Under the pieces are notes generated by a model. That model searched no databases. It saw nothing but the letters and a program-made list of their open reading frames with translations, and was not told where the DNA came from. From contig JAIBJN010000002.1 in NCBI GenBank assembly GCA_020029595.1, forward strand, positions 844 to 64,843: a DNA stretch of 64,000 nucleotides, read 5' to 3'. Source of the stretch: Actinomycetota bacterium (GTDB lineage Bacteria > Actinomycetota > Thermoleophilia > Gaiellales > Gaiellaceae). Shown here one piece after another: positions 27,916 through 64,000 of this stretch. The position numbers and the translations under genes were made by a program. Position 1 is the stretch's first letter, and every line of letters starts with the position of its first letter.

Positions 27916-28158
27916 ATGGCACGGCGGAGAGCCGAGAGAATCGACGACGTCACCCTCAAGATCCCGCGCCCCCTCTACGAGCGCCTCCGCCAGGTGATCG
28001 AGGGGACGGGATTCCATTCGGTGACCGAGTTCTGCGTCTACGTCCTCCGGGACCTCGCGGCGAGCCAGACGCCGACTCCGGACCACGACCGACTCACCAC
28101 CGAGGAAGTCGCGGCCATCCGCGGCCGGCTCCGGGCGCTCGGGTACCTGGAAGACTGA
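27916..28158 (+). CDS. ribbon-helix-helix (CopG-like) DNA-binding protein
   Basis: 80 aa. VTLKIPRPLYERLRQVIEGTGFHSVTEFCVYVLRDL fits a beta-strand/helix/helix RHH N-terminal domain. The C-terminal part is ...EEVAAIRGRLRALGYLED. Confidence 0.65.
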   Translation: MARRRAERIDDVTLKIPRPLYERLRQVIEGTGFHSVTEFCVYVLRDLAASQTPTPDHDRLTTEEVAAIRGRLRALGYLED

Positions 28159-28230
28159 GCGTCCCGTGACCACGTTCCGGACGCGCTGCGAGCACGACCT
28201 CGAGGGCCTCTACCGGGAGCGGCTCGGCCG

Positions 28231-29622
28231 ATGACCAAGGTGATGATCCTCGGGCTCGACTGCGCGGAGCCGTCGCTGGTCCTGGAGCGCTGGCGCCACG
28301 AGCTCCCGGTCCTCTCCGGGCTCATGGACAAGGGCGCCCACGGGCGGCTCACCTCCGTGATCCCGCCCATCACCGTGCCGGCCTGGTCCTGCATGATGTC
28401 GAGCCGCACTCCCGGCGACCTGGGCGTCTACGGTTTCCGCAACCGCTCCGACCACTCCTACGACGGGCTCTTCATCGCCAACTCGACCGCGATCCGCGAG
28501 CCGCGCCTCTGGGATCTCGCGACAAGAGCGGGCAAGCCGTCGATCGTCCTCGGCGTCCCGGGCACCTACCCGCCTCGACCGCTGAACGGGGTGATGGTGA
28601 GCTGCTTCCTGACGCCGTCCACCGAGAGCCAGTTCACGTTCCCTCCCATCCTCAAGCGGGAGGTCGAGGAGGTCGTCGGGGAGTACCTCTTCGACGTCCG
28701 CGACTTCCGCACGGACGACAAGGACTACCTCCTGCGGCAGGTCTACGAGATGACGGATCGGCGCTTCCGGCTCGCCGAGCACCTCCTCGAGACGAAGCCG
28801 TGGGAGCTCTTCGCCATGGTGGAGATGGGCCCGGACCGGATGTACCACGGCTTCTGGAAGCTGATGGACCCGGAGCATCGGAAGCACGAGCCCGACAACC
28901 CTTTCCAGAGCGCGATCCTGGACTACCACAAGCACCTCGACCGGCTCATGGGCCGCCTGCTTGCGCACGCCGACGAGAAGACGGCCGTGTTGGTCGTCTC
29001 CGACCACGGCGGCAAGCGGATGGACGGCGGAATCCGCGTCAACGAGTGGCTGAGACGCGAGGGCCTCCTCGCCACGCTCCGCGACCCCGAGGAGGCCGTT
29101 CCTCTCCGCGAGGCCGGGATCGACTGGTCGCGGACGGTTGCCTGGGGCGAGGGCGGCTACTACTCCCGCATCTTCCTGAACGTCGCCGGCCGGGAGCCTG
29201 AAGGGATCGTTTCGCCCGAAGACTACGAGCGCGTCCGCGGCGGCCTCGCGGAGCGGCTCGCCGCCATCCCCGACGAGAACGGGGATCCGCTCGACACGCG
29301 CGTCTACCTCCCCGAGCAGGTCTACGAACAGGCGAACGGCGTCCCGCCCGATCTCATCGTCCACTTCGGAGACCTCTACTGGCGCTCCGTGGGCACAGTG
29401 GGCGGCCGCGAGGGCGTCCACACGTTCGAGAACGACACCGGCCCGGACGATGCGAACCACGCACAGGAGGGCCTCTTCGTGCTCGTCGCCCCGGGGGTTC
29501 ACCCCGGCCCGCGTGAGGGCGCCCGCCTCCTAGACGTCGCCCCCACGGTGCTCGAGCTCATGGGACTCGACGTTCCCGCCTCGATGCGCGGGACGAGCCT
29601 GCTTTCGGCTGGCGTGGCATGA
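28231..29622 (+). CDS. alkaline-phosphatase-superfamily enzyme (type I phosphodiesterase/nucleotide pyrophosphatase family), cytoplasmic
   Basis: 463 aa. MILGLDCAEP..., PPITVPAWSCMMSSRTPGDLGVYGF (Thr nucleophile context), VLVVSDHGG. No signal peptide. Confidence 0.75.
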   Translation: MTKVMILGLDCAEPSLVLERWRHELPVLSGLMDKGAHGRLTSVIPPITVPAWSCMMSSRTPGDLGVYGFRNRSDHSYDGLFIANSTAIREPRLWDLATRAGKPSIVLGVPGTYPPRPLNGVMVSCFLTPSTESQFTFPPILKREVEEVVGEYLFDVRDFRTDDKDYLLRQVYEMTDRRFRLAEHLLETKPWELFAMVEMGPDRMYHGFWKLMDPEHRKHEPDNPFQSAILDYHKHLDRLMGRLLAHADEKTAVLVVSDHGGKRMDGGIRVNEWLRREGLLATLRDPEEAVPLREAGIDWSRTVAWGEGGYYSRIFLNVAGREPEGIVSPEDYERVRGGLAERLAAIPDENGDPLDTRVYLPEQVYEQANGVPPDLIVHFGDLYWRSVGTVGGREGVHTFENDTGPDDANHAQEGLFVLVAPGVHPGPREGARLLDVAPTVLELMGLDVPASMRGTSLLSAGVA

Positions 29623-29675
29623 GCCCTAGTCCTTTGGCCGGGTGACCACGGGCCGCTCGGCCCTAAGATGAGCGG

Positions 29676-30614: not shown

Positions 30615-30649
30615 GCCAGGCGCGGGCCCTAGGTCTGTAGTCGGTACAG

Positions 30650-32026
30650 CTAGGCGGGTAACTCCGGCGCGGGCTCCTCGGCCTCCGGCAGTTGCCAAAC
30701 GACCGCCGAGGGCCGGCCGATGCCCTCGTACGTGAAGCCGGCCGCGCGGGCGGTTGCCGGGTCGAGTAGGTTCCGCCCGTCCACGATGAGAGGCGTCCGC
30801 ATAGCCTGCCGCACCTCAGGCGAGGCCAACCGGCCGAGCTCGGGCCACTCGGTCACGACGACTGCGGCGTCGGCGCCGTCGACGGCCTCGAGGAGGGTCT
30901 CGGCGAACTCCACCCCTCCGAGGAGCTCTCGGGCTTCCTCGAGCGCGACGGGATCCCAGGCGCGCACGACCGCGCCCTCAGTGAGGAGGCGGGGCACGAG
31001 CACGAGACTCGGCGCCTCCCGCATGTCGTTCGTGCCCGGCTTGAAGGCGAGGCCCAGGAGCGCCACGGTCCGGCCCCGCAGGTCACCGAGGTGGGCCTGG
31101 AGCTTCTGCACGATGCGCCGCTTCTGGAGCTCGTTGACCTCGATCACCGCCGTGAGGAGCTGGAAGTGGTACCCGGAGTTCGCCGCGAGCTGCTTGAGAG
31201 CCGAGGCGTCCTTGGGAAAGCACGAGCCCCCGTAGCCGATGCCCGCTTTCAGGAAGTGCGGCCCGACGCGGTCGTCCAGCCCGACCCCGCGCGCCACCTC
31301 CTCGATGTCTGCCCCGACGAGCTCGCAGACGTTCGCAATCTCGTTGATGAAGCTGATCCTCGTCGCAAGCGCCGCGTTCGAGGCGAGCTTGATCATCTCC
31401 GCGGAGGCGACGTCGGTGCGCACGATCGGCGCTCCGAGCGGCTCGTACAGGGCCGCCACGCGGTCGCCGTCGGCATCCACGAAGGCCCCGACGACGACGC
31501 GGGCCGGCTCTCTGAAGTTCGCCAGGGCCGTCCCCTCCGCGAGGAACTCCGGGTTCGAGACGTAGCCCACGAAGGGAAGGCCGCGCGCGTCGAGGCGCGC
31601 CCGCACTCGCTCGCCGGTCCGCACGGGGACTGTGCTCTTCATGACGAGCACGATCCGCTCGTCGAGGCCGGAGAGCTCGTCGACGACCTGCCAAACCGCG
31701 GAGAGGTCGGCGTCGCCGGAGTACGCAGAGGGCGTCCCGACGCAGACGAAGGCGAGGCCGGCCGACTCGACGACGTCGCGCATCTCGAGCGTGAAGCGGA
31801 GCCGATCGCGGTTCCGGGCGAGCATCTCGCCGAGACCGGGCTCGTGGATCGGAACCTCCCCGGCCGCGAGGGCCGCCACACGCTCCGGCACGACGTCCCT
31901 GACCGTCACGCGGTGGCCGAGCTCGGCGAAGCAGGCGGCCGTGACGAGGCCGACCCACCCCGCACCCAGGACGCCAAGGGGCTCGCGGTCCACGGAAGGG
32001 AGTCTAGTGCGCCCTCCGCGGCTCAC
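30650..32026 (-). CDS. UDP-glucose/UDP-N-acetylhexosamine 6-dehydrogenase family protein
   Basis: 458-aa ORF. LGVLGAGWVGLVTAACFAELGH (NAD fold), GYGGSCFPKD (catalytic Cys), LGLAFKPGTNDMREAP. GTG at 31993 is a likely alternative start. The substrate (UDP-Glc or UDP-GlcNAc) cannot be told from the sequence alone. Confidence 0.9.
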   Translation of the reverse strand: MSRGGRTRLPSVDREPLGVLGAGWVGLVTAACFAELGHRVTVRDVVPERVAALAAGEVPIHEPGLGEMLARNRDRLRFTLEMRDVVESAGLAFVCVGTPSAYSGDADLSAVWQVVDELSGLDERIVLVMKSTVPVRTGERVRARLDARGLPFVGYVSNPEFLAEGTALANFREPARVVVGAFVDADGDRVAALYEPLGAPIVRTDVASAEMIKLASNAALATRISFINEIANVCELVGADIEEVARGVGLDDRVGPHFLKAGIGYGGSCFPKDASALKQLAANSGYHFQLLTAVIEVNELQKRRIVQKLQAHLGDLRGRTVALLGLAFKPGTNDMREAPSLVLVPRLLTEGAVVRAWDPVALEEARELLGGVEFAETLLEAVDGADAAVVVTEWPELGRLASPEVRQAMRTPLIVDGRNLLDPATARAAGFTYEGIGRPSAVVWQLPEAEEPAPELPA

Positions 32027-32144
32027 TGTCCCCCGTCAAGGGGATGCGAACCTGCCGCAGGCGTTGCTCTCACGTTGGAGGGGTGGTGCCGGGCTATCCA
32101 CACGACCAAAGGTGAGCTATGGTCCAGTTCCTTCGTGCAGTTCG

Positions 32145-32166
32145 ATCGAAAGGCGGCCCTTTCGAT
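32145..32166. repeat. 22-bp palindrome ATCGAAAGG-CGGC-CCTTTCGAT overlapping the ATG of the first LuxR-type gene
   Basis: 9-bp arms at 32145-32153 and 32158-32166 with loop CGGC. The last two bases of the right arm are the A and T of ATG 32165. A GAAAGG Shine-Dalgarno-like element lies in the left arm. Confidence 0.7.
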
Positions 32167-32932
32167 GAGTCTTTCTGAGCATCGCACCGCAGTTCTGCTG
32201 GACCGGCATCCCATCTGGCTGGACGTCGTGGAGCAGGTTCTCGAGCGCATCGGAGTCGAAGTCGAGGGCAAGGCAACCTCTCCCGACCGCGCCCTCGCTC
32301 TCATCGAGGAGCACAGGCCCAGCCTGCTCGTGCTGGGCATCGGGATGGGCGATCGAGAGCTAGACGGGATCGAATACGTCGGTCTCGCACGGCAGCGCGC
32401 GCCAGAACTCAAGGTGGTCGTGCACTCCGCGCACGCCGATCCGCAGCACGTCGACGCGGCGCTCGCGGCCGGCGCGCAGGCCTACGTGCTCAAGTCCGCA
32501 CACGCCGACGACCTCGCCTCTGCGATCCGGCAGGCATTCGATCACTCCGTTTACCTCGCCCGCCGACGCAACGGGAGGCGGCAGCTGGCCCCCGAGTCCG
32601 TCGCCGAGACGTGGGGGCTCACCCGCCGTGAGCTCGAGATCCTCACCCTGGTGGCGGAGGGGCACTCGAACGCACAGCTCGCGCGGATGCTGTGGGTGAC
32701 GGAGCAGACCGTCAAGTACCACCTCTCCAACGTCTACCGCAAGCTCGATCTCTCGAACCGGACCGAGGCAGGTCGGTGGGCGCAGCTCCACGGCCTGCTC
32801 CCGACCGAGTCGACGCCGAACGGAGGGGTGCCCCCGCCGGAGCCGCACGAGCGCGACGGCCACGCGTTCGGGGCCAGGCCCGCGCCTGCACATCGAGATG
32901 AGGGGGCGACGGCGGGCTGGCGGGACCACTGA
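32165..32932 (+). CDS. LuxR/NarL-family regulator with atypical (aspartate-less) receiver domain, copy 1
   Basis: From ATG 32165: MSLSEHRTAVLLDRHPIW... The receiver fold is kept (conserved S in VVVHSAH, K in YVLKSA), but the phospho-acceptor position reads SLLVLGIGMG (G instead of D). The C-terminal HTH is [43 protein letters not shown]. 255 aa. Confidence 0.85.
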   Translation: MSLSEHRTAVLLDRHPIWLDVVEQVLERIGVEVEGKATSPDRALALIEEHRPSLLVLGIGMGDRELDGIEYVGLARQRAPELKVVVHSAHADPQHVDAALAAGAQAYVLKSAHADDLASAIRQAFDHSVYLARRRNGRRQLAPESVAETWGLTRRELEILTLVAEGHSNAQLARMLWVTEQTVKYHLSNVYRKLDLSNRTEAGRWAQLHGLLPTESTPNGGVPPPEPHERDGHAFGARPAPAHRDEGATAGWRDH

Positions 32933-33050
32933 GAGTTCTCCACCGGGTTTCCCCAGCTTCTCCACAGATCTCCACGAGCCCCCATTCGAGGGATTCTCGC
33001 GGGGTGAGGACGTTTTCCACACTTTCGGCTAGGTCCCACACTTGCGGTTC

Positions 33051-33080
33051 CTGCTTCGATGCGATAGAAGCAGCGTTTTG
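33051..33080 (+). terminator. hairpin plus T-tract (possible weak intrinsic terminator or attenuator) between the two LuxR genes
   Basis: CTGCTTC-gatgcgata-GAAGCAG (7-bp stem, 9-nt loop) followed by CGTTTTG. It lies 118 nt after the copy-1 stop and 30 nt before the copy-2 start. The T-tract is short, so this is speculative. Confidence 0.3.
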
Positions 33081-33089
33081 CGGCTCTCG

Positions 33090-33111
33090 ATCGAAAGGCG
33101 GCCCTTTCGGT
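33090..33111. repeat. second copy of the palindrome, ATCGAAAGG-CGGC-CCTTTCGGT, overlapping the GTG of the second LuxR-type gene
   Basis: Matches the first palindrome at 21 of 22 positions. The right arm ends in the G and T of GTG 33110 (one G-U wobble). Confidence 0.7.
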
Positions 33112-33772
33112 GAACACTCACCTGGACAAACGCACTGCCGTCCTCCTGGACCAGTACCCGCTGTGGTTGGAGACATTGGCGCAGGTCGTCGAGCGAGTCG
33201 GCGTCGACGTGGTCGCGAAGACCAACTCCTCTTCCGCAGCCCTGGCCGTCATCGAGGCACGGTCTCCCAACCTCCTCATCACAGGCATCAAGACGCCCGA
33301 GGCGGACGTCGACGGCGTCGGCCTCATCTGCCGGGCGCGCGAGCTGCACCCGGAGCTGAAGGTGATCGTCCTCTCCATGTACGACGATCCCCAGCTCATC
33401 GAGGCGGCGTTCGCTGCGGGCGCCGTCGCCTACGTTCTCAAGACGGCACACCCCGATGACCTCACGTCCGCCGTCCGGCAGGCGTTCGAGCACTCCATCT
33501 ACCTGGCCGGCGCCCGGCCTGCCCGAGCGCCCGCGGCTCGCCCGACGGACTCGCCGGGGCTGACGCGACGGGAGCTGGAGATCCTTCGGCTGGTCGCCGA
33601 GGGGCATTCGAACGCCGAGCTTGCCCGGATGCTGTGGGTCACCGAGCAGACGGTGAAGTTCCACTTGTCGAACATCTACCGGAAGCTCAACGTGTCCAAC
33701 CGGACAGAGGCGAGCCGCTGGGCCCAGCTCCGCGGTCTCCTGCAGGCACCGGCCGTGCCGGCGACCGCATAG
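33110..33772 (+). CDS. LuxR/NarL-family regulator with atypical (aspartate-less) receiver domain, copy 2
   Basis: 220 aa. [12 protein letters not shown]..., acceptor position [11 protein letters not shown] (G instead of D), [46 protein letters not shown]. Clearly paralogous to copy 1. Confidence 0.85.
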
Positions 33773-33785
33773 GGGTCGGGGCGAC

Positions 33786-34328
33786 GTGCTCCTTCATCGA
33801 GGCCCCGTGAGGGCGGGATCGAGCGCGGACGCGCCGCTGTCCACCGAACCGGCGAACGACGCCCCGCATCGCCTCATTCGGGACGTGACGTTCGGGGAGG
33901 GCGTGATCGTGCATCCCTTCACGAACCTCTACGGATGTCGGATAGGTGCGCACACGCGCATCGGCCCCTTCGTCGAGATCCAGGGTGGCGTGGTCATCGG
34001 GGCGCAGTGCAAGATCCAGAGCCACGCCTTCCTGTGCGAGGGCGTCGACATCGAGGACGAGGTCTTCGTCGGTCACGGCGTCGTGTTCGTGAACGACAAG
34101 TTCCCCCGGGCGACGATCGACGAGGGGCTCCTCCAGACGAACAGCGACTGGACCGTACTCGCGACGACCGTCGAACGGCGCGCGTCCCTCGGCTCGGGCG
34201 CGGTGATCCTCGGCGGCGTGCGAATCGGCGAAGGCGCCCTGGTGGGCGCCGGTGCAGTCGTCACACGAGACGTTCCGGCCGGCCAGGTCGTCGCCGGAAA
34301 CCCCGCCCGCGAGCTCGTGCGGCGCTAG
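33786..34328 (+). CDS. left-handed beta-helix (hexapeptide) sugar N-acetyltransferase, WlbB/WbpD-like
   Basis: 180-aa [60 protein letters not shown]...[40 protein letters not shown]. The layout matches UDP-2-acetamido-3-amino-2,3-dideoxyuronate N-acetyltransferases. The start is uncertain. Confidence 0.8.
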
Positions 34329-34390
34329 GAACCGGTCGACGACATCGGGACCGTTCGGAAGCGTGGCCGCGCCACTGCCGTTCATGGGAC

Positions 34391-35434
34391 ATGACGCGCC
34401 CTTGCGGGGTCGTCCTCGTCCTCAATCGCCGACGCGCCGTGGGCCCGAGCCCCGCGGTCTGGCCGCCGCAGCTCATGCCGGTCGCCAATCGCCCCCTGCT
34501 CGACCACGCCCTTGGGGCCCTGCGGGCCGCCGGGGTGGCGGAGATCGTCGTGGTCGCCGACTCCTCGAGCGGATCCAGGGTGCGAGGAGCCCTGACGAAC
34601 TCGAGGTCTCGGAGCGCGGTACACGTCATCGACGCGCCCCGTTCCGGCGGCGAGGTGGCCGCGCTCGACGCCGCCCGCCGGATGACCGGGGACGCCCCGC
34701 TCGTCGTCCATCGCGGTGACGCGCTCGCCGGCGATCTCCTGTCCCACGAGCTGCCGCGCTTCCTCGCCGGCCAGGCGGATGCCGCGGTGCTCTTCCTCGA
34801 GCCGGGCTTGAGGCAGGAGGACCCGTCCCGTCACCTCTCCGCGTGGGCGCGCCACAGCCGCCCGGAACCCCTGGGCATCGAGCTGCTCTCCTCGCCCATG
34901 CTGGATGCTCTCTGCACCCTGAACCGAACCGGGGGAGGAAAGCGCAGGCTCGCCGGCCCGTTGGCGCAGGCCGGAGGCTCCGGCTGGGAGGTCGAGCAGC
35001 GCGTCCTCACGCACGGGTGGCGCCTGCACGAGAGCGCCGAGAGCGTTCTCGACGGCAATCGCTTCGCTCTCGAGGACCTCAGCGCGGACTGGCACCCCGA
35101 CTCGCTCGTACGAACGCGCCTCGAAGGCCGAGTCGCAATCCATCCCTCGAGTCGCGTGGAGGACTCGCTGCTCCGCGGCCCCTGCGTGATCGGTGCGAAC
35201 GCCACGATCCGCCACGCGTACGTGGGGCCCTACACGGCGATCGGTCCCGGCTGCGTGATCGAGAACGCCGAGCTCGAGCACTCGGTGATCCTGCAGGACG
35301 CGACCATTCGCGACGTCGGTTGGCGGCTCGAGCACAGCGTCGTGGGCGCCCGCGCCCGCGTAGCGCGCGAGTTTCGCCTCCCGCAAGCCGTTCACCTCTG
35401 TCTCGGCGACGACGCGCGCATCTCCGTGAGTTGA
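34391..35434 (+). CDS. sugar-1-phosphate nucleotidyltransferase-like protein (long RmlA-type with C-terminal LbH domain) with a degenerate active-site loop
   Basis: From ATG 34391, 347 aa. PQLMPVANRPLLDHALGALRAAGVAEIVVV and the C-terminal IGANATIRHAYVGPYTAIGPGCVIENAELEHSVILQDATI match long-form G1P thymidylyltransferases. The GGxGTRLxPLT loop is replaced by VLNRRRAVGPSPAVWP. Confidence 0.7.
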   Translation: MTRPCGVVLVLNRRRAVGPSPAVWPPQLMPVANRPLLDHALGALRAAGVAEIVVVADSSSGSRVRGALTNSRSRSAVHVIDAPRSGGEVAALDAARRMTGDAPLVVHRGDALAGDLLSHELPRFLAGQADAAVLFLEPGLRQEDPSRHLSAWARHSRPEPLGIELLSSPMLDALCTLNRTGGGKRRLAGPLAQAGGSGWEVEQRVLTHGWRLHESAESVLDGNRFALEDLSADWHPDSLVRTRLEGRVAIHPSSRVEDSLLRGPCVIGANATIRHAYVGPYTAIGPGCVIENAELEHSVILQDATIRDVGWRLEHSVVGARARVAREFRLPQAVHLCLGDDARISVS

Positions 35435-35604
35435 CCCGGCCCGCCGCCGTCAGTCGGACTTTTCTCGGACCGACTTTTTCTCGACTCCGAAGACCGCTTC
35501 TCGCCTCGTTCTCCTCCCGTAGAGGACAAGGCGCGGGCGGCGCGCGCCATTCGCCGGGCCACGCGCTCGGCGCTCGGGCGAGCGCCCACCGACAGGAGGG
35601 CGAG

Positions 35605-40551: not shown

Positions 40552-40597
40552 TGCCTCGGGAAGCGGCATCTGTCCTGACGGCTCCCGCCTGATTCGC

Positions 40598-48834: not shown

Positions 48835-48927
48835 ACATGCAACGCGCCGGGGCGGCGCGAACTTTCGGGCGAGCGGGGAGTGCTCCGCGTGCAAGCGGCG
48901 GCCCCGCTGCCGCGTTTGTCTCCCGGA

Positions 48928-50859: not shown

Positions 50860-50864
50860 GCGCG

Positions 50865-51803: not shown

Positions 51804-51866
51804 TCCCGCGCCCTCAGAACTCCATTCGGTCCGGCAGCCGAGGTCTTCGCTTTCGAAAGGGGTTCT

Positions 51867-55324: not shown

Positions 55325-55436
55325 CAGTGTGGAGGGGCCCGGCGGCCGCTCACCGTCTCGAAAGACGAACGAAGCGGAGTCGAGCAGACTTCCGCTCTCG
55401 CAGAAGCGAAGCGACCGGCCCGACGTTCTTCTGGTG

Positions 55437-56618: not shown

Positions 56619-56630
56619 CGGGCGCTGCGT

Positions 56631-59600
56631 CTATCGCGGCCCGAAGACCCGCCCGGCCCGCCGCCAGGTAACGCCGGCCCCAAAGCCGAGCCTGGAGACC
56701 TGGGTCTTGGTGAGTCGGAAGTCGTTTCGGGCCGGGGCACGAAACTGCGGCCGCACCGACCTGTCGCGCGACTGCGCGCCCCAGTTCCACCCACCCGTGA
56801 TCACGTTTCGATACTGGTTGAGCACCGCTGGGTCGCGGTAGTCGGACTCGTAGCCCGCCTCCACGACCATGCCGTTGAAGACGTTGTTGCGGACGATGAG
56901 ACCGCGGTTGTCGTTCTCCTGCAGGACGACGGGGGCCTGGACGTTCCAAACGGTATTGCGCGCGATCACGGCGCCGATCGTCCGGTACAGCTGGATCTGC
57001 CAGAACGGGCCGCTGACGCGCACGAAGAGGTTGTTCGCCACCACGACGTCGCTGACGCGGCCGTCCTTGATGAAGAACCCCTGGCCGCGGTTGTCGTGGA
57101 CGTAGTTCCCGCGGAAGACGAGCCCGTCCCCGCCCCACACCGTCTGGAGGGTGTCGTTGTGGGAGCCGTTCTCGATCACGCCGGTGATCTCGTTCCCCTC
57201 GACGACCACCTGGCGGAAGTTGGTCAGGAACAGGGCGTCCGTGCTGGGCCGAGCGATGCGATTGCCGCGGATCGTCACGTAGCGGACGGGCGGCAGGTCC
57301 GTCGCGTTCGGGTCGGGCGCTCCCGGGACGTTTGCCGCGGTCGAAACAAGCTCGACACAGTTGTCGCAGTCGTGGATCGAGTTGTGCTCGATCAGAAGGT
57401 GGTGCGTCCCCCACTTCGCCGACACGCCGCGAAGATTGGAATCCAGGATCTGGATGTGATGGGCGCCCTCGGGCGCGAGGTCGACCTGGCCGTTCACGCG
57501 CACCCGCCTCACGCGCATGTAGGAGGCCGTCGGGGAGAAGTTGAGGTCGGCGAAGAAGACGCTCGCGCCTGAAGAAGGTCTGATCGTAACCCAGCCGGTT
57601 CGGCTCCCGCTGAGAAGAGCAGAGCCGTAGCTGCCGCCTCGCACGTAGACCGTCCCTCCGTTCGGCGCTCTCCGCACTGCCGCCTGCAGCTCGCTGACCG
57701 AGTCGACGACGATCGGCCGAGGCGCGGCCTCCACTCGACCTTCCGAGGACACGAGCGCGGCCGCGGCCACGGTGGCGGCAACGAGGGCGCGCCCGGCCTG
57801 ACGGCTCGGAGCCGCCTTTGCAGCAGTGCGGTGCAGGGGCGTAAAGATGATCGCGGACGGTGATCGCGGGACGACGGCAGCCTGGCTGATCAGCCGCAGG
57901 CCGGACGGCCGCTCGATGGTACGCATCGCCGGTTTGGGCGCTGTGTGCACCGTGTTAGCGTCCTGTAAGGCCGCCGCCGCAGGGAGCCGCGCGGCAACGG
58001 GCGGAAGCAGCGCGAGAACCTCAAATCCCCGTGACGGATACGTTCCTGCGGCAGGAGCGCCGAGATCGCCCAAGACGAGCGTGCTCGCGGCCTCCTCCCG
58101 CAGCCACGCGCCGAGCCTGCGGTTGTAGTCCACGCCGAAGGTGCGGGAGCCGAACGGAGTGAAGTCCCGCGCGCCGACGACCGCAAGGCCGACGTGCTCC
58201 CGCTGCAGCGCACGGACTGCGGCGAGCTCGTCCGCGGGAGAGTCGAGCAGACCCGGGAGCAACATGAGCTCCGGGAGCGCGGGCCGGCGAGCGGTCATGA
58301 AGTAGAGACCCCCGTCCGAGGGCGCCGCCAGGATCGCGTCTCCCGGTCCCGTCGTCTCCCCCACGACGTCCACGGCAGCCTGGATCGCCGGGGCCGAGCG
58401 CTCGTCGGCGATGTACGTGCCCCGCGCGGTACGGACCGGCGTCGTGCGGTCGGCGTAGAGACCGACGAGCGCATACAGCGCCAATCCCAAGGCGACGGCG
58501 CCGAGCGCGGCGAGCACGGCCGACCGCGCAGCGGGCCAGCGGTCCGCGACGCGCTGGTGGAGGAGGCCGGCGAGAAGTACGAGCGGTGCCGCGTAGTACG
58601 GCGCGTACGAGCCCTCGCCGGTGAACGCGTTGTAGGCGCGGAGACCGAGGGCGGTGGTCGCGGCGAGAAGCGCGAGGTCGACCGCCCAGGAATCCGAAAA
58701 CGGCGGGGGGCGCCGACGGACGAAGCGCGTGCCCGCCCACGCGGCGACGGCGGCGGCCAGGAAGGGCAGCCAGCTCATCCCGATCGTCAGGTGATGGACT
58801 TCCTGCTCGATCGCCGCGCGCTGGTCGGGGAACGCCCCGACCACGCGGACACAGATGTCCAGCGCGAGCAGGGCCGCGACCGCGGCCGCCGGGGGAGCGG
58901 CTGCGGCGAGCAGGCGATGCAGACCGCCGCGCCCGGACTCGCGCCAGCCAACGACGCCCGCGACCAGGCCCGTGAGTACGAGCCCGTAGACCGCCCCGCG
59001 CCCCACCAGGCCGGCGAGGCTCTCGAGGGAAAACGGCATCCAGTGCTCCTGGGAGCGGAAGCCCGCCTGGCGGATGAAGTCGACCGGCCACAGGTTCTCG
59101 GTGAAGAGCCGATTCGCGCCCGCCTGGGCGGCGAAGACTCCGAGGATCGCTCCGGCGATCGCGACGGCCGGGAGAGCAAGCCGAACCGCCGCAGCGCTCG
59201 CCGCCCGGCGCCCTGCGTCGCGCCAGGCCCCGATCGCATACGCGACCGACGCCGCGACTGCGACGGCGGCGAACTCGGGCCGTGTGAGCGCAACCAGGCC
59301 GATGGCCACCCCGGCGAGCCACAGGCGACCCCGCGTAAGCGCGAGCAGCTGCAGCAGCAGGAAGAGGAGTCCGATCGTTGCCGAGTTCGTGTGCGGGAGG
59401 ACGAAGTTGAACGCCGTACCGGAGAACCCGATCGCCAGCAGGACCGCCGTCGCCAGGCCCGCCGCCACGGGCCGCAGCCAGTGCCGCGCCAGGGCGTAGA
59501 AGACTCCGAGGATCGCGGCGGCCTGCACGAGCCCGAACACGAACGCAACGGTGAAGCTCGGGCCGAAGAGGCGGAAGGCGCCGGCCAGCCCGTAGAGCCC

Positions 59601-59840
59601 CAGCGGCCCGTAGAAGTAGCGTACGTCTCGGTAGGGCACGTCACCGTGGGCGACGAGGTCCGCGGTCGTGAGCTCGGCGCCGGCGTCGATCTCGGGGTTC
59701 CCCCACTTGCGCCAGGTCAGCCCCACCATCAGCATGAAGACCAGCCCGAGGACAACGAGAGCTGCGGCGTCCTGCGTGAGGTGAAGGTGTCCGGCCCGCG
59801 CGCGCTCGGGGCACGTCGCGCTCCGCGGGTCGACGCTCAC
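56631..59840 (-). CDS. polytopic GT-C-like membrane protein fused in frame to a C-terminal right-handed beta-helix domain
   Basis: From GTG 59840 (GTGA overlap with the upstream flippase-like gene), 1069 aa with no in-frame stop. The N-terminal roughly 630 aa have many TM helices plus a first-loop acidic motif NPEIDAGAEL...YRDVRYFYGPLG. The linker contains KAAPSRQAGRALVAATVAAAALVSSEGRVEAA. The C-terminal part is GGTVYVRGGSYG...HNSIHDCDNCVEL...VVVEGNEITG...VVANNLF...IARNTVWN... (beta-helix repeats). Confidence 0.7.
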   Translation of the reverse strand: MSVDPRSATCPERARAGHLHLTQDAAALVVLGLVFMLMVGLTWRKWGNPEIDAGAELTTADLVAHGDVPYRDVRYFYGPLGLYGLAGAFRLFGPSFTVAFVFGLVQAAAILGVFYALARHWLRPVAAGLATAVLLAIGFSGTAFNFVLPHTNSATIGLLFLLLQLLALTRGRLWLAGVAIGLVALTRPEFAAVAVAASVAYAIGAWRDAGRRAASAAAVRLALPAVAIAGAILGVFAAQAGANRLFTENLWPVDFIRQAGFRSQEHWMPFSLESLAGLVGRGAVYGLVLTGLVAGVVGWRESGRGGLHRLLAAAAPPAAAVAALLALDICVRVVGAFPDQRAAIEQEVHHLTIGMSWLPFLAAAVAAWAGTRFVRRRPPPFSDSWAVDLALLAATTALGLRAYNAFTGEGSYAPYYAAPLVLLAGLLHQRVADRWPAARSAVLAALGAVALGLALYALVGLYADRTTPVRTARGTYIADERSAPAIQAAVDVVGETTGPGDAILAAPSDGGLYFMTARRPALPELMLLPGLLDSPADELAAVRALQREHVGLAVVGARDFTPFGSRTFGVDYNRRLGAWLREEAASTLVLGDLGAPAAGTYPSRGFEVLALLPPVAARLPAAAALQDANTVHTAPKPAMRTIERPSGLRLISQAAVVPRSPSAIIFTPLHRTAAKAAPSRQAGRALVAATVAAAALVSSEGRVEAAPRPIVVDSVSELQAAVRRAPNGGTVYVRGGSYGSALLSGSRTGWVTIRPSSGASVFFADLNFSPTASYMRVRRVRVNGQVDLAPEGAHHIQILDSNLRGVSAKWGTHHLLIEHNSIHDCDNCVELVSTAANVPGAPDPNATDLPPVRYVTIRGNRIARPSTDALFLTNFRQVVVEGNEITGVIENGSHNDTLQTVWGGDGLVFRGNYVHDNRGQGFFIKDGRVSDVVVANNLFVRVSGPFWQIQLYRTIGAVIARNTVWNVQAPVVLQENDNRGLIVRNNVFNGMVVEAGYESDYRDPAVLNQYRNVITGGWNWGAQSRDRSVRPQFRAPARNDFRLTKTQVSRLGFGAGVTWRRAGRVFGPR

Positions 59841-61300
59841 GATCGCGCCGGCCGCAGCGCGCCCACCAGGACCCCGACCTGGTGGCGGGCGACGAGCACG
59901 ACGCCGCCGCAGTACAGCACGGTGCCCACCGCACCGGCCACGAGGGTCGCGGGCAGTCCGTCGGCGAGCAACTCTCCGACGGCCGCCCCGGCCCCGAAGG
60001 CCGCGGCCGCGAGCGCGAGGAAGCGGAGCGCGTCGCCGGCGAGCTCCCGCGCGAGCCCGCTTGCCCCCGGGCCCGCACCCGTCCGCACGAGGACGACGGC
60101 GAAGAGCGCCGGCGCAACGGCCAACACCGCGATCGTCCCCTCCACCCCGAACACCTTGCTCGCGACGACCGTCGCCGCGACGTGGACGACGAGCAGCGGT
60201 AGCGCCAGCACGTTGACCAGGCGAGCGCGCCCCAGGGCGAACATGAACGGGAGGAGCAGGTTCACCAGCAGCGCGAAGACCGTCCATGAAACCAGCAGGA
60301 CTGTGAACGTGCGCAGCGTCTCCACCCCTTGGGCGTCGAGGCTGGCCGGGAAGAGCTCATGGATGAGCGGCGCGCCGGCCGTCACGAGAGCGGCCAGGGC
60401 GGGCGCCACGAGCAGCATCGCATACCGGAAGCCGACTGGAACGGTCGCGGCCACGACCGCGCGTCGCGCGGCCCGCGCCTCGCGCGTCATGTCGGGGATA
60501 CGCGACATCCCGAGCGCCACCCCCGTGCCGGCGACGAGGTAGCTCGCGAAGAGGTAGGCGTAGGACAGCACCGTAGCGTCGCCGGGCGCCGAGTGGCTGA
60601 CGTAGGCGAGCGTCACGACAAAGAGGGCGCTGAACGCGAGGTAGACCGCCGTGCGGCCCAGGAGGAGGCCCGACCTGGCAACGAGCGACCGCAGGCGAAA
60701 GGCGCCGGTTCGGGGGCCCAGCCCACCGGCAGCGCGCAGACCGGCGAGCATCCAGCCCGAGGTGACCACCGCCATGGCGAGCATCGACCAGCCCAGGGTG
60801 AGCTCGCCCGCGCTCGACATGACGGCGAGGTACGTGAGGAGTCCCGCCAGCGCGCCGGCGACGTAGCTCGCCGCGACGGTCGTGAACCGCCCTCTGATGG
60901 CCAGGACCGTGGCACCCCCCGCCGCCCAGAGCTGGAGGACCGTCGCGGCGCCGAGAACCGGCAGCGCGGTCTCGGTGACGACCCGGTCCTCGGGCGCGAG
61001 CCCGGGGGCGAGCAGCTGGGCGAGGGGGCCCGCGAGCGGCCCCGTGGCAACGAGGACGGGAACGGCGAGGAGCCCCAGCCCGGCCGCAAACTCCCGCACG
61101 CTCAGGCGGGCGCCGGGCTCCACGAGCAGCGGCACCGAGGTGAGGCGCAGGCTCTGGCTGAAGACGCCGAACGTCGTGTAGAGGGCGAAGGCGACGAAGA
61201 ACCCGTCGGTGCGGCCGGTGACGCCGAACTCGCTCAGGTACAGGACTGCCTGGATCGCCGAAGCCGCGGCCATGGAGAAGGTCGCGAGCGACATCGCCAT
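59837..61300 (-). CDS. polytopic membrane protein, MOP-flippase (MurJ/Wzx)-like
   Basis: C-terminal part of track ORF 59837..62515. From ATG 61300 (GGGAGG 11 nt upstream; ATG 61327 is an alternative) it is 487 aa with about 12-14 TM helices. The layout is MurJ/MviN-like (N-terminal ...AASAIQAVLYLSEFGVTGRTDGFFVAFALY). Family assignment is tentative. Confidence 0.55.
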   Translation of the reverse strand: MAMSLATFSMAAASAIQAVLYLSEFGVTGRTDGFFVAFALYTTFGVFSQSLRLTSVPLLVEPGARLSVREFAAGLGLLAVPVLVATGPLAGPLAQLLAPGLAPEDRVVTETALPVLGAATVLQLWAAGGATVLAIRGRFTTVAASYVAGALAGLLTYLAVMSSAGELTLGWSMLAMAVVTSGWMLAGLRAAGGLGPRTGAFRLRSLVARSGLLLGRTAVYLAFSALFVVTLAYVSHSAPGDATVLSYAYLFASYLVAGTGVALGMSRIPDMTREARAARRAVVAATVPVGFRYAMLLVAPALAALVTAGAPLIHELFPASLDAQGVETLRTFTVLLVSWTVFALLVNLLLPFMFALGRARLVNVLALPLLVVHVAATVVASKVFGVEGTIAVLAVAPALFAVVLVRTGAGPGASGLARELAGDALRFLALAAAAFGAGAAVGELLADGLPATLVAGAVGTVLYCGGVVLVARHQVGVLVGALRPARS

Positions 61301-61389
61301 GCCTGCGCGCGCCTCCCGCCTGCGCATCGGCGCGGCGGGCGCCCGCAGCAGCCGCGCGGGGAGCGGGTGGCTGTATCGGCCCATGTGGA

Positions 61390-64000
61390 CTACGGAGTGC
61401 CGTTGATGTAGTGCTCGGAGATCGTCGCGGCGCCGAGGGCGCGATCGTAGACAGCCAGCTCGTCCAGGACGCCGGCGCCGAAGAGCGCGCTGCCGCCGCG
61501 CGACATGAAGTACAGGGCCGCGTTGGCGAACGGTCCGGCGCCGGTCCCGCTGGCGCTCTTCGCGTACGCGATCGGCTGCCCGTCGACGTACGGCGTGATC
61601 TGCGTGGCGGACGGAGCGGTGGCGTCGAGCACGAACGCGTAGTGGTGCCAGGCGCCGGCGCTCGGGCGCGTGAACCTCGCCGTGTTGCGGGAAAGGTCGC
61701 GACCGATTCCCACGCTGAAGTCGCCGTCGGAGCTGTTCGGAACGACGATGAAGCCGCCGTCGTTCTGGTTGAAGTTCTGCGTCAGCTCGAGCGCCAGGTC
61801 GTCGTCGTCGGCGAAGGCGTCCCACTTGAGCCAGAACTCGACGGTGATCGCGCTCGTCGCGGACAGGTTCACGTTCGCCTGGGCAAAGTCGTCGCTTCCG
61901 TCGTAACGCGCGGCGACGTTGACTGGACCGGCCAGCCCGCCGGGGACACCAAAGGTCACGCCACCACCGGCCGTCGCGGGACTCGAGCCCCTGCTGTCGG
62001 CGAAGGTCGTCCCGCCTGTCTCCTCCATGCGCCAGTAGCTCACGAGCCCGGCGGTCGCGAGGACGGAGGCCTCGTAGGAGGCAGACTTGACGCTGAGCGA
62101 CTGCGTCTTCGTGGCAGTCAGGCCGTCGTCGTCCGTGACCCGAAGACCGACGGCGATCGTCGCGGCGCTCGTATAGGCCCTGGTCGTCGTCGGCGTCGCG
62201 CCCGTGTTGACCTCGTAGGTGCCGTTGCCGTCGAGGTCCCATTGGTATCCGACGATCGTCCCGTCGACGTCGGTGGAGCTCGAGGCGTCGAACTGCACCG
62301 TCTGGTTCAGGACGGCCGGATTCGGCGTGATCGTGAGGTCCGCAGTCGGTGCCGCATTGCCGACAACGAGGGTCTGCGTTTGGATGTCGGTGCCGTTCGA
62401 GTTGTCCAGAACTCGGAGGCGCACGTTGACGACCTGAGCTGTCGAGTAGGAGCGATTGACGATGCGGTTCGTGCCCGAGTCGGTCTCGAAGCTGCCATTG
62501 CCGTCGAGATCCCACTGGAACTTCACGATCGACCCGTCGGGATCGAAGGAAGCGCCGGCGTCGAACCTGACGTTGCGGTTGGGCCTCACCTGGGTCCGCG
62601 ACATGGTGAAGCTCGCGATCGGCCTGCGGTTGGTGCCCGACGAGGCGTAGTGGTCCGCGATCGTGGCCGCGTCCAGCGCCTGGTTGAAGATCGCCACCTC
62701 GTCCAGGTCTCCGCCCCCGAAGAGGCCGGTGCCGGCACGGGACATGAGGTAGAGCGTCGCGTTCGCGAACGCGCCGCCTCCCGTCCCCGAGTCACGCTTC
62801 GTGTAGGACACCGCCTGCCCATCCACGTACGGGGTGATCTGCGTGGCCGCCGGCGCCTCGGCATCGAGCACGAACGCGTAGTGATGCCAGGTGCCCGTGC
62901 TCGGCCTGGTGAAGAACGCGTTGTTGCGCGTGCCGAAGCGCCCGATTCCCACGCCGAATGTCCCGCCGAGCTGCGGGGCGTCGGGGTCGACGAGGAAGCC
63001 CCCGTCGTTCCCGTTGAAGTTGTTCGTGAACTCGAGCGCGAGTTGATCCTCGTCCCGGTAGCGAGTCCACTTGAGCCAGAATTCCACGGTGACGGCGCTC
63101 GTGCCCGAGAGGTTGACCGGAGCGCTCGCGAAGTCGTCCACGCCGTCGAACCGCACCGCCGTATTGGCATCGCCAGCGACTCCGCCGGCGACCCCGAACA
63201 CCGGGGCGCCTGTCGCGCCACCCGCCGCCGTGGCGTGGCTCGTTCCCTTGCTGTCTGCGAGGGTCGGGCCCGTCGCCTCGCCCATCCGCCAGTAGCTCAC
63301 GAGCCCCGCCGTGTCGAGGATCGTGTCGCCGTGCGCGCTCACGCCGCCGGCGTTGACGCCGAGCGGAAGGGTGGCCACGCCTGTCTTTCCGCCGGCATCC
63401 GTGACCCGCAACCCGACGTTGACGGTGGCGACCGAGGCGTACGTCTTCGACGTCGTCGCCGTCGTTCCGGTATCCAGCTCGTAGGTCCCGTTGCCGTCGA
63501 GGTCCCACTCGTACTTGACGATCGCGTTGTCCACGTCGCTCGACGCGGACGCGTTGAACTGGACGGCCAGGTCGACGATGGCCGGGTTCGGGGACGCGGT
63601 GAACGACGCGGTCGGCGGCTGGTTGCCGACGAGCAGGGTGTGCACCTCCGTGTCGGTGCCCGTCAGGTCGTCGGTGACTCGCAGCCGCACGTCCACGCCG
63701 CCCTCGGCCGCGAAGCCGCGCGTGACGGTCGGGTCGGCGCCCGAGTCGAGCTCGAACGATCCGTTGCCGTCGAGGTCCCACTCGTACCTCGCGATCGTGC
63801 CGTCCGGGTCGCTCGAGGTAGACGCGTCGAACGTCACTCCGACGCCCACACCCGCGGGGTTCGGCGTCATCGTGAACCGTGCGACCGGCCGCCGGTTCGT
63901 GCCGAAGCTTGCGTGGTGCTCCGCGATCGTGGCCGCAGAGAGGGCGCGGTCGTAGATCGCCACCTCGTCGAGATAGCCGCGGCCGAAGAGGCTCGCGCCG
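61390..64000 (-). CDS. giant secreted repeat protein built of tandem [PKD-PKD-LamG] supermodules; 5' end beyond the window
   Basis: The reading frame is open to the window edge. The track's 'M' at 63963 is an internal GTG in ...LDEVAIYDRAL. PKD units look like RFTMTPNPAGVGVGVTFDASTSSDPDGTIARYEWDLDGNGSFE. LamG units look like LVSYWRMGEATGPTLADS...VRFDGVDDFASAPVNLSGTSAVTVEFWLKW...WHHYAFVLDA...ITPYVDGQ...LDEVAIFNQALDAATIADHY. Confidence 0.85.
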   Translation of the reverse strand, partial: GASLFGRGYLDEVAIYDRALSAATIAEHHASFGTNRRPVARFTMTPNPAGVGVGVTFDASTSSDPDGTIARYEWDLDGNGSFELDSGADPTVTRGFAAEGGVDVRLRVTDDLTGTDTEVHTLLVGNQPPTASFTASPNPAIVDLAVQFNASASSDVDNAIVKYEWDLDGNGTYELDTGTTATTSKTYASVATVNVGLRVTDAGGKTGVATLPLGVNAGGVSAHGDTILDTAGLVSYWRMGEATGPTLADSKGTSHATAAGGATGAPVFGVAGGVAGDANTAVRFDGVDDFASAPVNLSGTSAVTVEFWLKWTRYRDEDQLALEFTNNFNGNDGGFLVDPDAPQLGGTFGVGIGRFGTRNNAFFTRPSTGTWHHYAFVLDAEAPAATQITPYVDGQAVSYTKRDSGTGGGAFANATLYLMSRAGTGLFGGGDLDEVAIFNQALDAATIADHYASSGTNRRPIASFTMSRTQVRPNRNVRFDAGASFDPDGSIVKFQWDLDGNGSFETDSGTNRIVNRSYSTAQVVNVRLRVLDNSNGTDIQTQTLVVGNAAPTADLTITPNPAVLNQTVQFDASSSTDVDGTIVGYQWDLDGNGTYEVNTGATPTTTRAYTSAATIAVGLRVTDDDGLTATKTQSLSVKSASYEASVLATAGLVSYWRMEETGGTTFADSRGSSPATAGGGVTFGVPGGLAGPVNVAARYDGSDDFAQANVNLSATSAITVEFWLKWDAFADDDDLALELTQNFNQNDGGFIVVPNSSDGDFSVGIGRDLSRNTARFTRPSAGAWHHYAFVLDATAPSATQITPYVDGQPIAYAKSASGTGAGPFANAALYFMSRGGSALFGAGVLDELAVYDRALGAATISEHYINGTP

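Follow-up and report, generated by a model that had tools for sequence, protein, structure and literature searches.

The tuaABCDEFGH operon of Bacillus subtilis is among the closest described counterparts of the locus considered here, a large cluster of surface-glycan and surface-protein genes that extends from 27.9 kb to the end of a 64 000-nucleotide stretch of DNA (hereafter, the window) from a bacterium assigned to the class Thermoleophilia. Both include a Bac_transf-type primer (TuaA in the operon), a Wzx flippase (TuaB), a family GT4 glycosyltransferase (TuaC), a UDP-glucose dehydrogenase (UGD; TuaD), a polymerase of the Wzy type (TuaE; a candidate in the locus), a co-polymerase with a Wzz domain (TuaF), a GT2 glycosyltransferase (TuaG) and a GT4-like enzyme (TuaH); the roles given for TuaA, TuaC, TuaG and TuaH follow common knowledge and the names of the NCBIfam models. 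TuaB corresponds to Wzx, TuaD to UGD, TuaE to Wzy and TuaF to Wzz (PMC9018123). The Tua models are among the best or the only NCBIfam matches of the UGD, the Wzx, the second GT2 enzyme (GT2b) and the GT4-like protein of the locus, with scores below the equivalog cut-offs (472 against 700 bits for TuaD, 122 against 580 bits for TuaB and 51 against 550 bits for TuaH; for TuaG, E = 6e-7). The locus goes beyond tua in encoding a predicted C3-diacetamido-sugar pathway, a UDP-glucuronate decarboxylase (UXS), two AsnB-type amidotransferases, a GT-C glycosyltransferase with a MurJ-like partner, secreted beta-helix enzymes, a giant LamG/PKD protein, an extracytoplasmic function (ECF) sigma factor and aspartate-less regulators, and differs from it in that neither a link to phosphate starvation nor a wall ligase is evident. 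Given the Tua scores below the cut-offs and the lack of a ligase of the LytR-CpsA-Psr (LCP) type, the locus would work like tua without being a member of that group. It also resembles Gram-positive capsule and secondary-wall-polymer loci that combine Wzx, Wzy and Wzz with a small phosphoglycosyl transferase.

Other parts of the locus have their own described relatives. The likely triad of oxidoreductase, C3 aminotransferase and N-acetyltransferase has counterparts in WbpA/B/E/D/I of Pseudomonas aeruginosa, WlbA-D of Bordetella and GnnA/GnnB, but the locus encodes neither a WbpA-type dehydrogenase nor a WbpI epimerase, and its dehydrogenase resembles the archaeal UDP-GlcNAc 3-dehydrogenase more than WbpB. 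A flippase gene next to a multi-spanning, wall-polymer-decorating GT-C is the arrangement of the multi-component transmembrane glycosylation systems (CsbB/GtcA/YfhO; GacI/J/K/L of Streptococcus pyogenes). The Gac system employs a MOP/Wzx-type flippase (GacK), and large GT-Cs can bear extracellular carbohydrate-binding domains (PMC8035078). The locus differs from these systems in that its GT-C belongs to a small, lineage-restricted family and is fused to a beta-helix, and in that no membrane-linked GT-A lipid-sugar synthase was found in it. Exopolysaccharide loci with their own lyases or hydrolases (Vibrio VPS with RbmB; alginate with AlgL/AlgG/AlgE) likewise encode right-handed beta-helix enzymes together with the machinery for the polymer that these enzymes cut or epimerise, but the likeness of the beta-helix proteins of the locus to RbmB, the PL6 lyases and AlgE4 is at the level of the fold only, with TM-scores of 0.3-0.5. 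Finally, receiver (REC) domains without the phospho-acceptor Asp, joined to a DNA-binding output domain, form the described class of aspartate-less receivers (PMC4395418, PMC12632262). Two regulators of the locus, RR1 and RR2, have the same layout, with no cognate kinase gene nearby, and differ from the described ones in that RR2 represents a highly conserved NarL-type family of Thermoleophilia, with an invariant Gly and with D14, S89 and K111 kept. An earlier interpretation of the window, made from the letters alone (hereafter, the sequence-only reading), held that this was not a described system. Every component falls within a described class and the logic is known; what is new is how the components are combined and kept together throughout an order, along with the small family of the GT-C and its fusion with a lyase-like domain.

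Taken as a whole, the locus probably is one modular system for a Wzx/Wzy-dependent acidic heteropolysaccharide of the envelope, either wall-associated and 'teichuronic-acid-like' or a tightly bound exopolysaccharide, that is co-inherited across uncultured Thermoleophilia. The gene content is strongly skewed in this direction. Because the GC content of the window is ~70%, lists of open reading frames are crowded with shadows; genes were called from frame plots of the periodicity of third-position GC (GC3) and annotated using Pfam and NCBIfam. The 26 genes called between 27.9 kb and the end of the window form about ten transcription units, and 21 of these genes make, export or process glycans or encode surface proteins, compared with 2 of the 34 genes in the upstream 27.9 kb (Fisher p = 1.6e-9). 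The claim of the sequence-only reading that one large surface-glycan and surface-protein locus begins at this point is thus borne out, and the gene map reproduces all seven strand switches listed in it (30.6, 32.1, 43.0, 48.9, 51.8, 55.4 and 56.6 kb). The families named there, namely UXS, the dehydrogenase/aminotransferase/acetyltransferase triad, the PglC-type primer, the Wzz-like and Wzy-like proteins, two flippase-like proteins (Wzx and MurJ-like), two AsnB amidotransferases and the GT-C, were all recovered; the glycosyltransferases number five with the GT-C included, that is, four Leloir enzymes (GT-A/GT-B) plus one GT-C, and not five plus the GT-C.

The second line of evidence comes from related genomes. 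A scan for the GT-C, with one genome retained per species, yielded 80 loci with 10-kb flanks, against which all window proteins were searched; the shares of the families are counted in the 61 loci from other species with full flanks of 10 kb on both sides.
LamG/PKD giant protein: 57 loci, 93%
MurJ-like protein: 82%
GT4-like glycosyltransferase: 44 loci, 72%
Wzx: 39 loci, 64%
GT2b: 32 loci, 52%
beta-helix proteins: 33-36%
Wzy: 34%
Wzz-like protein: 34%, with Wzy adjacent and co-oriented in 20 of 21 loci
GT2a (the first GT2 enzyme): 20 loci, 33%, orthologs 60-67% identical
AsnB2 (the second amidotransferase): 21%

The identities to the window proteins are typically 45-65%, and both the order and the orientation of the genes differ between lineages; in one relative (L009), the order of the window is kept from the LamG/PKD gene to GT2a, with the beta-helix as a separate gene on the opposite strand. 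The genes for DegT, GT4, the PglC-type transferase and the ECF sigma factor were also seen at the edges of the flanks. As the same families stay together despite rearrangement, they appear to be functionally linked, and on this evidence of neighbourhood the right-hand ~21 kb of the window (from ~43 kb) is one co-inherited system rather than a set of chance neighbours. The same pattern further implies a vertically inherited feature of the lineage and not an island.

This conservation does not extend to the left end of the locus, where five genes make up a module between 27.9 and 32.9 kb.
27916-28158, plus strand: small 80-aa protein, ribbon-helix-helix (RHH)-like by eye only, with a beta-strand/helix/helix pattern; its membership of the locus is uncertain
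28231-29622, plus strand: cytoplasmic phosphodiesterase/nucleotide pyrophosphatase of the alkaline phosphatase (AlkP) superfamily (PF01663, 145 bits), with no predicted transmembrane (TM) segment
29676-30614, plus strand: UXS (360 bits, E = 1e-106, to the human UXS1 structures 2b69 and 4gll)
30650-32026, minus strand: UDP-glucose 6-dehydrogenase family protein (UGD), with all three UDPG_MGDP_dh domains
32165-32932, plus strand: RR1, NarL/LuxR-type regulator with an aspartate-less receiver (REC and GerE domains), Gly at the phospho-acceptor column; 60% identical paralog of RR2

The 80-aa protein has no match in Pfam or NCBIfam and is absent from a close relative (L085), and the search of PDB sequences with the AlkP-like protein gave no match. 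A UGD is present, as stated in the sequence-only reading, but the gene at 28231 encodes the PF01663 phosphodiesterase and not a UGD. None of the five genes has a counterpart near the GT-C in the 80 related loci, and all are missing from L085 and L086, two loci from metagenome-assembled genomes (MAGs) labelled Gaiellaceae. By this pattern, the module looks like a strain-specific add-on, and its functional tie to the rest of the locus is a secondary uncertainty.

Such a discontinuity is what would be expected if two or three separate clusters, each for a different envelope product, merely adjoined, with the supply of UDP-GlcA and UDP-Xyl and a regulator at 27.9-32.9 kb, a Wzx/Wzy cluster at 33-56.6 kb and the giant protein, MurJ-like protein and GT-C at 56.6-64 kb. 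The much greater constancy of the MurJ-like, GT-C and LamG/PKD families (82-100%) compared with Wzy and Wzz (34%), the ten transcription units and the seven strand switches all point the same way. We nevertheless regard this explanation as unlikely: Wzx, the GT4-like enzyme, GT2, AsnB, Wzy/Wzz and beta-helix proteins recur beside the GT-C across species in varied order, as expected of functional linkage, the lower counts of some genes are in part an artefact of the 10-kb flanks, and the window contains a single priming transferase for two flippases. The comparison of presence and absence in related genomes that the sequence-only reading had proposed, with independent but adjacent clusters as the outcome that would speak against it, gives a split answer. 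Families centred on the GT-C recur in all 61 loci, and the right-hand ~21 kb does not break up into independent clusters; the left module, lacking in L085 and L086, looks like an addition.

Under the preferred explanation, a single polymer system, the course of synthesis can be outlined from family membership, the assignment of UXS being the strong one. The UGD would make UDP-GlcA, part of which UXS would turn into UDP-xylose. The family assignment of UXS as a bona fide enzyme converting UDP-GlcA to UDP-xylose is strong. The best NCBIfam match of the UGD is TuaD (472 bits against a cut-off of 700), the AglM model scores 378 bits, and the cut-off of the NDP-sugar dehydrogenase subfamily is passed. 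An identity as a WbpA-type UDP-GlcNAc dehydrogenase was rejected, the protein being of the UDP-glucose type with only E = 1e-8 to the TviB/WbpA-type model. The other candidate genes for precursors are the following.
33786-34328, plus strand: hexapeptide-repeat sugar N-acetyltransferase (Hexapep domain); best PDB matches include WlbB (3mqg), QdtC and a WxcM-like protein (4mzu)
34391-35434, plus strand: sugar-1-phosphate nucleotidylyltransferase with a left-handed beta-helix tail (NTP_transf_3 and LbH; rmlA_long 137 bits, below the cut-off)
36249-37466, plus strand: DegT-family sugar C3 aminotransferase (PF01041, 395 bits); top PDB matches 2oga, 7b0d, QdtB and WbpE
38114-39247, plus strand: GFO/IDH/MocA oxidoreductase, likely UDP-GlcNAc 3-dehydrogenase (NCBIfam model of the archaeal enzyme, 158 bits against a cut-off of 450)
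48928-50859, plus strand: AsnB-type glutamine amidotransferase 1, AsnB1 (GATase_7 and Asn_synthase; TIGR03108 481 bits, below the cut-off)
51867-53786, minus strand: AsnB-type glutamine amidotransferase 2, AsnB2 (TIGR03108, 637 bits against a cut-off of 817)

The dehydrogenase, aminotransferase and acetyltransferase are together predicted to convert UDP-GlcNAc into UDP-GlcNAc3NAc, a 2,3-diacetamido sugar. The PDB entry 7bvj, which we take to be GnnA, is among the top matches of the dehydrogenase; 2oga is presumably DesV, and we take the top PDB relatives of the DegT protein to be C3 aminotransferases and the WlbB, QdtC and WxcM-like relatives of the acetyltransferase to act on the C3 amino group. 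As the locus contains no WbpA-type UDP-GlcNAc 6-dehydrogenase and no WbpI-type 2-epimerase, and as its dehydrogenase is nearer to the archaeal type, neutral GlcNAc3NAc is the more likely product. The nucleotidylyltransferase would activate a further sugar. Both amidotransferases begin with MCGI, so that the N-terminal Cys is kept, and have the model of the exopolysaccharide-associated amidotransferase (TIGR03108) on top. WbpS-type AsnB enzymes make uronamides and accompany diacetamido-sugar pathways; by analogy, AsnB1 and AsnB2, with the Cys2 nucleophile intact, are likely to amidate carboxyl groups, probably those of uronic acids, to form uronamides.

Assembly, export and polymerization of the repeat unit are assigned to eight proteins.
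37442-38113, plus strand: small monotopic phosphoglycosyl transferase of the PglC type, priming (Bac_transf 210 bits against a cut-off of 27; one hydrophobic segment)
39244-40551, plus strand: GT4 glycosyltransferase (Glyco_trans_4_4 and Glyco_trans_1_4)
40598-41599, plus strand: divergent Wzz/polysaccharide co-polymerase, two TM segments around a ~180-aa loop
41596-42972, plus strand: Wzy_C-domain membrane protein, likely repeat-unit polymerase (PF04932, 42 bits against a cut-off of 31.7; ~11 TM segments)
47929-48843, minus strand: GT2a (Glycos_transf_2)
50865-51803, plus strand: GT2b (Glycos_transf_2)
53786-55324, minus strand: Wzx (MOP-family) repeat-unit flippase (Polysacc_synt_3, 161 bits against a cut-off of 23; 12 TM segments)
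55329-56618 (start within 55329-55437), plus strand: GT4-like glycosyltransferase, divergently oriented from Wzx (weak Glyco_trans_1_4 and Glyco_transf_4)

In this scheme, the PglC-type transferase, which matches the catalytic domain of WbaP and PglC structures in the search of PDB sequences, would prime undecaprenyl phosphate. Small PglC-type transferases commonly use di-N-acetylated sugars, and the substrate is plausibly the diacetamido sugar. The four cytoplasmic glycosyltransferases (GT4, GT2a, GT2b and GT4-like) would then build the repeat unit, Wzx would flip it and the Wzy_C protein would polymerize it under the control of the translationally coupled Wzz-like co-polymerase. The Wzz-like protein of the window matches PF02706 only with E = 0.052, but seven of the ten aligned members of its family (nine orthologs and the window protein) match this domain, the best with 1.2e-8; the Wzy_C protein has no match in PDB or NCBIfam. 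Many of the genes are tightly packed, with 4-nt overlaps between sigma and DegT, GFO and GT4, Wzz and Wzy, and the MurJ-like protein and the GT-C, a 25-nt overlap of the DegT and PglC-type genes and a zero gap between the latter and GFO; base 53786 is common to the start of AsnB2 and the end of the Wzx reading frame. The scan of metagenomes with an alignment of the PglC-type protein, which employed generic patterns, retrieved ordinary phosphoglycosyl transferases with 41-54% identity, only one of the loci (L087) being collinear (DegT-PglC-GFO, 62-64%). In another locus (L084, 8200-9800), PglC-type and GFO genes lie beside an ortholog of RR2 in several short tblastn pieces, which may reflect decay or sequencing errors.

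At the right-hand end of the locus, the GT-C and its MurJ-like partner form the most distinctive part.
56631-59840, minus strand: ArnT-like GT-C (aa 1-620), disordered linker and lyase-like beta-helix (aa 706-1017), 1069 aa in total (AlphaFold2 model and Foldseek)
59837-61300, minus strand: distant MurJ-like membrane protein of the MOP family, second flippase candidate (TIGR01695, 31.6 bits; at least 9 TM segments)

The start of the GT-C gene overlaps the upstream MurJ-like gene via GTGA, and in 42 of the 61 loci the two genes are likewise adjacent on the same strand. The MurJ-like protein was considered as the housekeeping lipid II flippase MurJ and rejected (31.6 bits against a cut-off of 235). 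The GT-C fusion has no sequence match in PDB. The AlphaFold model, built from an alignment of 71 sequences with a mean pLDDT of 83 (above 90 in the beta-helix part), has four parts: residues 1-464 form a multi-helix membrane domain, 465-620 a small alpha/beta domain, 622-705 a disordered linker and 706-1017 a right-handed beta-helix. In Foldseek searches, the membrane part retrieves ArnT (5f15) first (E = 4e-7, probability 1.0), then STT3/AglB, DPY19 and AftA, and the beta-helix retrieves PL6 chondroitinase and alginate lyases, RbmB, AlgE4, GH87/GH28 enzymes and phage tailspikes. D52, D72 and R74 are invariant in the 71 GT-C sequences and lie in the segment that follows the first TM helix; in the model, the protein thus is predicted to be an enzyme of the GT-C fold with the acidic motif after the first TM helix.

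The GT-C family is small, with 117 representatives at E <= 1e-30 among 1.84 billion. Most of the relatives are stand-alone GT-Cs of ~620 aa, and nine homologs (~980-1090 aa) carry the beta-helix fusion. That the fusion is an artefact of assembly was rejected given these nine independent homologs of the same architecture, and to our knowledge no GT-C with a C-terminal lyase-like beta-helix has been described. The Ala-rich linker (57726-57977, aa 622-705) contains RALVAATVAAAALVSSEGRVEAAP, which resembles the remnant of a signal peptide from a formerly separate gene for a secreted beta-helix protein; as an internal Met precedes RALVAATVAAAALVSSEGRVEAAP, the beta-helix part may also be translated separately. 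One MAG (MFD04944.bin.2.197) carries two GT-C loci (L037 and L065) on different contigs, so duplication of the module in a single genome is possible. The MurJ-like protein and the GT-C could form a multi-component transmembrane glycosylation module that adds a lipid-carried sugar to the polymer outside the membrane, and in this strain the beta-helix domain of the GT-C could bind or cut the acceptor.

Three further genes encode secreted proteins with beta-helix, LamG or PKD domains.
43042-46485, minus strand: secreted 1147-aa protein with beta-helix, LamG, two FN3 and beta-helix domains (Pfam), a signal-peptide-like N-terminus and, in NCBIfam, two choice-of-anchor Q motifs and a PelN-like match
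46541-47716, minus strand: secreted 391-aa right-handed beta-helix protein, lyase/hydrolase-like (AlphaFold2 model, pLDDT 93)
61390-64000, minus strand: giant secreted protein, C-terminal 869 aa, with repeated PKD-PKD-LamG modules (PKD four times, Laminin_G_3 twice), continuing past the window end

With the 1069-aa GT-C fusion, these proteins (1147, 391 and more than 869 aa) add up to ~3,480 aa, in agreement with the figure of more than 3,400 aa for secreted beta-helix, LamG, FN3 and PKD proteins in the sequence-only reading. Foldseek matches of the 391-aa protein are GH136, Pel9A (pectate lyase), rhamnogalacturonan lyase, PL6 lyases and RbmB (E = 3e-7 to 1e-3), and H193, D194, H203, R279, N281 and R376 are conserved. 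Both this protein and the beta-helix of the GT-C fusion are modelled with the right-handed parallel beta-helix fold of polysaccharide lyases (PL6/PL9-like). Many such beta-helix enzymes act on uronic-acid polymers. The resemblance to enzymes that cut these polymers, a reaction predicted here from the models, fits a polymer that depends on UGD, and the secreted lyase-fold proteins may trim or remodel it. The giant LamG/PKD protein could bind the polymer at the surface or be decorated by it. In one relative (L003, 1-8363), its homolog is 3322 aa long and also contains a DMFA2_C (dimethylformamidase-like) domain.

The acceptor, whether polymer, wall or giant protein, is the main uncertainty. A reading that we consider doubtful places it on protein: an oligosaccharide on undecaprenyl phosphate would be flipped and transferred en bloc to the LamG/PKD and beta-helix proteins, as in O-glycosylation of S-layer-like surface proteins, either by the Wzy_C protein in the role of an oligosaccharyltransferase of the PglL/WsaB type or by the ArnT/PMT-like GT-C. 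The LamG/PKD protein is indeed the most constant neighbour of the GT-C (57 of 61 loci), often transcribed in the same sense as the genes for the MurJ-like protein and the GT-C itself, Foldseek matches of the GT-C include oligosaccharyltransferases (STT3/AglB) and the protein mannosyltransferase DPY19, with a faint match to PMT_2, Wzx weakly matches an 'O-glycosylation flippase' model, and the secreted proteins contain linkers rich in Pro, Thr and Ser. However, the translational coupling of Wzz to Wzy, with the pairing found in 20 of 21 loci, points to polymerization rather than to transfer of a single unit, and the lyase-like beta-helix enzymes imply a polymeric substrate; both activities could coexist. 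A bolder reading, to which we give equally little credence, proposes a surface layer that defines the Thermoleophilia. There, the family-restricted GT-C and the MurJ-like flippase would couple the Wzx/Wzy glycan to the LamG/PKD protein or build it on that protein, uronamide, xylose and diacetamido sugars would abound in the glycan, strains with the fusion would possess a 'transfer-and-trim' enzyme, and phosphorylation-independent NarL-type regulators together with the in-operon ECF sigma would be in control, an arrangement with no characterised counterpart.

Several observations weigh against a single locus for a wall-associated or tightly bound polysaccharide. No LytR_cpsA_psr (LCP-type wall ligase) domain was detected in the scanned genes of the window, although such a protein could be encoded elsewhere; neither GT2 enzyme contains a TM segment or matches the GtrB/CsbB type, so the lipid-sugar synthase for the GT-C was not found in the locus; and Wzy_C domains are shared with WaaL ligases and PglL-type O-oligosaccharyltransferases. 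All matches to the Tua, Wbp and Gnn equivalog models are below the curated cut-offs. The middle operon, from sigma to GT4, was found near the GT-C in only three to eight loci, with the flanks limited to 10 kb, and in L085 and L086, which lack the left module, the ortholog of RR2 directly follows the gene for the metallo-beta-lactamase (MBL)-fold hydrolase. Searches of the literature on envelope glycans of Solirubrobacterales and Thermoleophilia returned nothing relevant.

Soils harbour abundant actinobacteria of the class Thermoleophilia (Solirubrobacterales, Gaiellales and relatives), few of which have been cultured. As a rule, loci for surface polysaccharides are hypervariable; that these enzymes keep 45-65% identity in dozens of species suggests that the envelope contains a conserved polymer, probably a structural one, which would be comparable in status to teichuronic acid or to rhamnose wall polysaccharides. 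The handles for work on it are the priming transferase, the small GT-C family without a solved relative detectable by sequence and the predicted sugars (GlcA/uronamide, Xyl and GlcNAc3NAc), and the candidate depolymerases could be useful for chemistry, for phage-receptor work and as cultivation-independent markers. The locus by itself reveals no new mechanism.

Besides RR1 and, possibly, the RHH-like protein of the left module, two genes of the locus encode regulators.
33110-33772, plus strand: RR2, aspartate-less NarL-type regulator, Gly59 aligned with D59 of NarL and D55 of VraR
35605-36252, plus strand: ECF sigma factor (Sigma70_r2 and r4_2), first gene of the DegT-to-Wzy operon, with a 4-nt overlap with DegT

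RR1 and RR2, with Response_reg scores of 58-62 bits, are, by their domain make-up, aspartate-less or pseudo-receiver regulators, a known class; Gly59 is invariant in the 16 members of the RR2 family, and homologs of RR2 with 66-78% identity are very common in soil metagenomes. An identical 20-mer, TCGATCGAAAGGCGGCCCTT, occurs at 32142-32161 and 33087-33106, in both cases ending 3 nt before the start codon, which points to a local duplication of gene and 5' leader together. The region upstream of RR2 (32933-33109) contains several TCCACA(C) repeats, which might be sites of auto-regulation. The ortholog of RR2 occupies the same spot, right after the MBL gene, in L085 and L086. Downstream of it, in both (10811-20666 and 4594-14563, respectively), there is, instead of a glycan locus, an ABC transporter and a lasso-peptide-type cluster that includes PqqD, transglutaminase-like proteins and Asn_synthase cyclases. 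The site is thus variable, and RR2 is a core gene, not strictly a dedicated regulator. Orthologs of the ECF sigma (57-58% identity) are present in three related loci, in two of these (L048 and L052) beside the PglC-type gene. The sigma gene heads the operon from DegT to Wzy, and the genes for the two NarL-type regulators, presumably independent of phosphorylation, lie upstream. The aspartate-less response regulators and the ECF sigma of the sequence-only reading are corroborated, with Gly in place of the phospho-Asp and the expected sigma domains. Its description of three dedicated transcription factors stands for the two NarL-type proteins and the sigma in the operon as such, but not for the dedication of RR2, nor for the number, as the RHH-like protein makes four possible regulators.

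The different cluster found downstream of RR2 in a close relative would also fit a recent acquisition of the locus as a genomic island of foreign origin, as would the GC3 of the locus genes (~0.88), which is about 5 points lower than that of the upstream genes (~0.93; p = 6e-6). Such an acquisition is very improbable, and we rejected it on the composition and the lack of tRNA genes. The mean GC of the locus (0.700) does not differ significantly from that of the upstream part (0.711; p = 0.08), a difference of only 0.011, the strand-symmetrised tetranucleotide profiles of the two halves of the window correlate at 0.989, a tRNA scan of the window found none, no integrase or transposase is among the Pfam matches of the window genes scanned, and the close homologs all come from the same class, where the locus is widespread. 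The 'unusual composition' ascribed to the locus therefore reduces to the drop in GC3; by the comparison with the first 27 kb that had been proposed as a check, the two parts barely differ.

The left half of the window (positions 1-27.8 kb) consists of housekeeping genes, as judged from the Pfam and NCBIfam matches.
Solute-binding protein, Kelch protein, atpBEFHAG, pyridoxal phosphate-dependent (PLP) decarboxylase, WecA-type transferase, upp, glyA and epimerase
Sua5, PrmC, RF1, DUF1385, PALP enzyme, ETF-QO and ETF alpha/beta
M23 peptidase, ThiE and ThiG with a thiamine pyrophosphate (TPP) riboswitch
Homocysteine methyltransferase fusion, enoyl-CoA hydratase, B12-binding protein and MBL-fold hydrolase

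This half is collinear with L085 and L086, at 71-90% amino-acid identity, and the MAGs with GT-C homologs bear the labels Solirubrobacteraceae, Solirubrobacterales, Thermoleophilaceae or Baekduia; by these sequence relationships, the host is an uncultured representative of the Thermoleophilia. Directly after the atp operon (atpB, E, F, H, A, G; 909-7146, minus strand) come the genes for the Kelch-repeat protein (909-1847) and a family-5 solute-binding protein, and the domain scan did not place the genes for F1 beta and epsilon (atpD, atpC) at the canonical position after the operon. The TPP riboswitch (24042-24151, minus strand), upstream of thiG, scores 62 bits, above the gathering score, and is the sole Rfam match in the window. 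At 24165-25919 (minus strand), one gene joins a homocysteine S-methyltransferase domain to a class-I S-adenosylmethionine-dependent methyltransferase domain (PrmA/MTS-like), and the same fusion is found in L085, with 82% identity.

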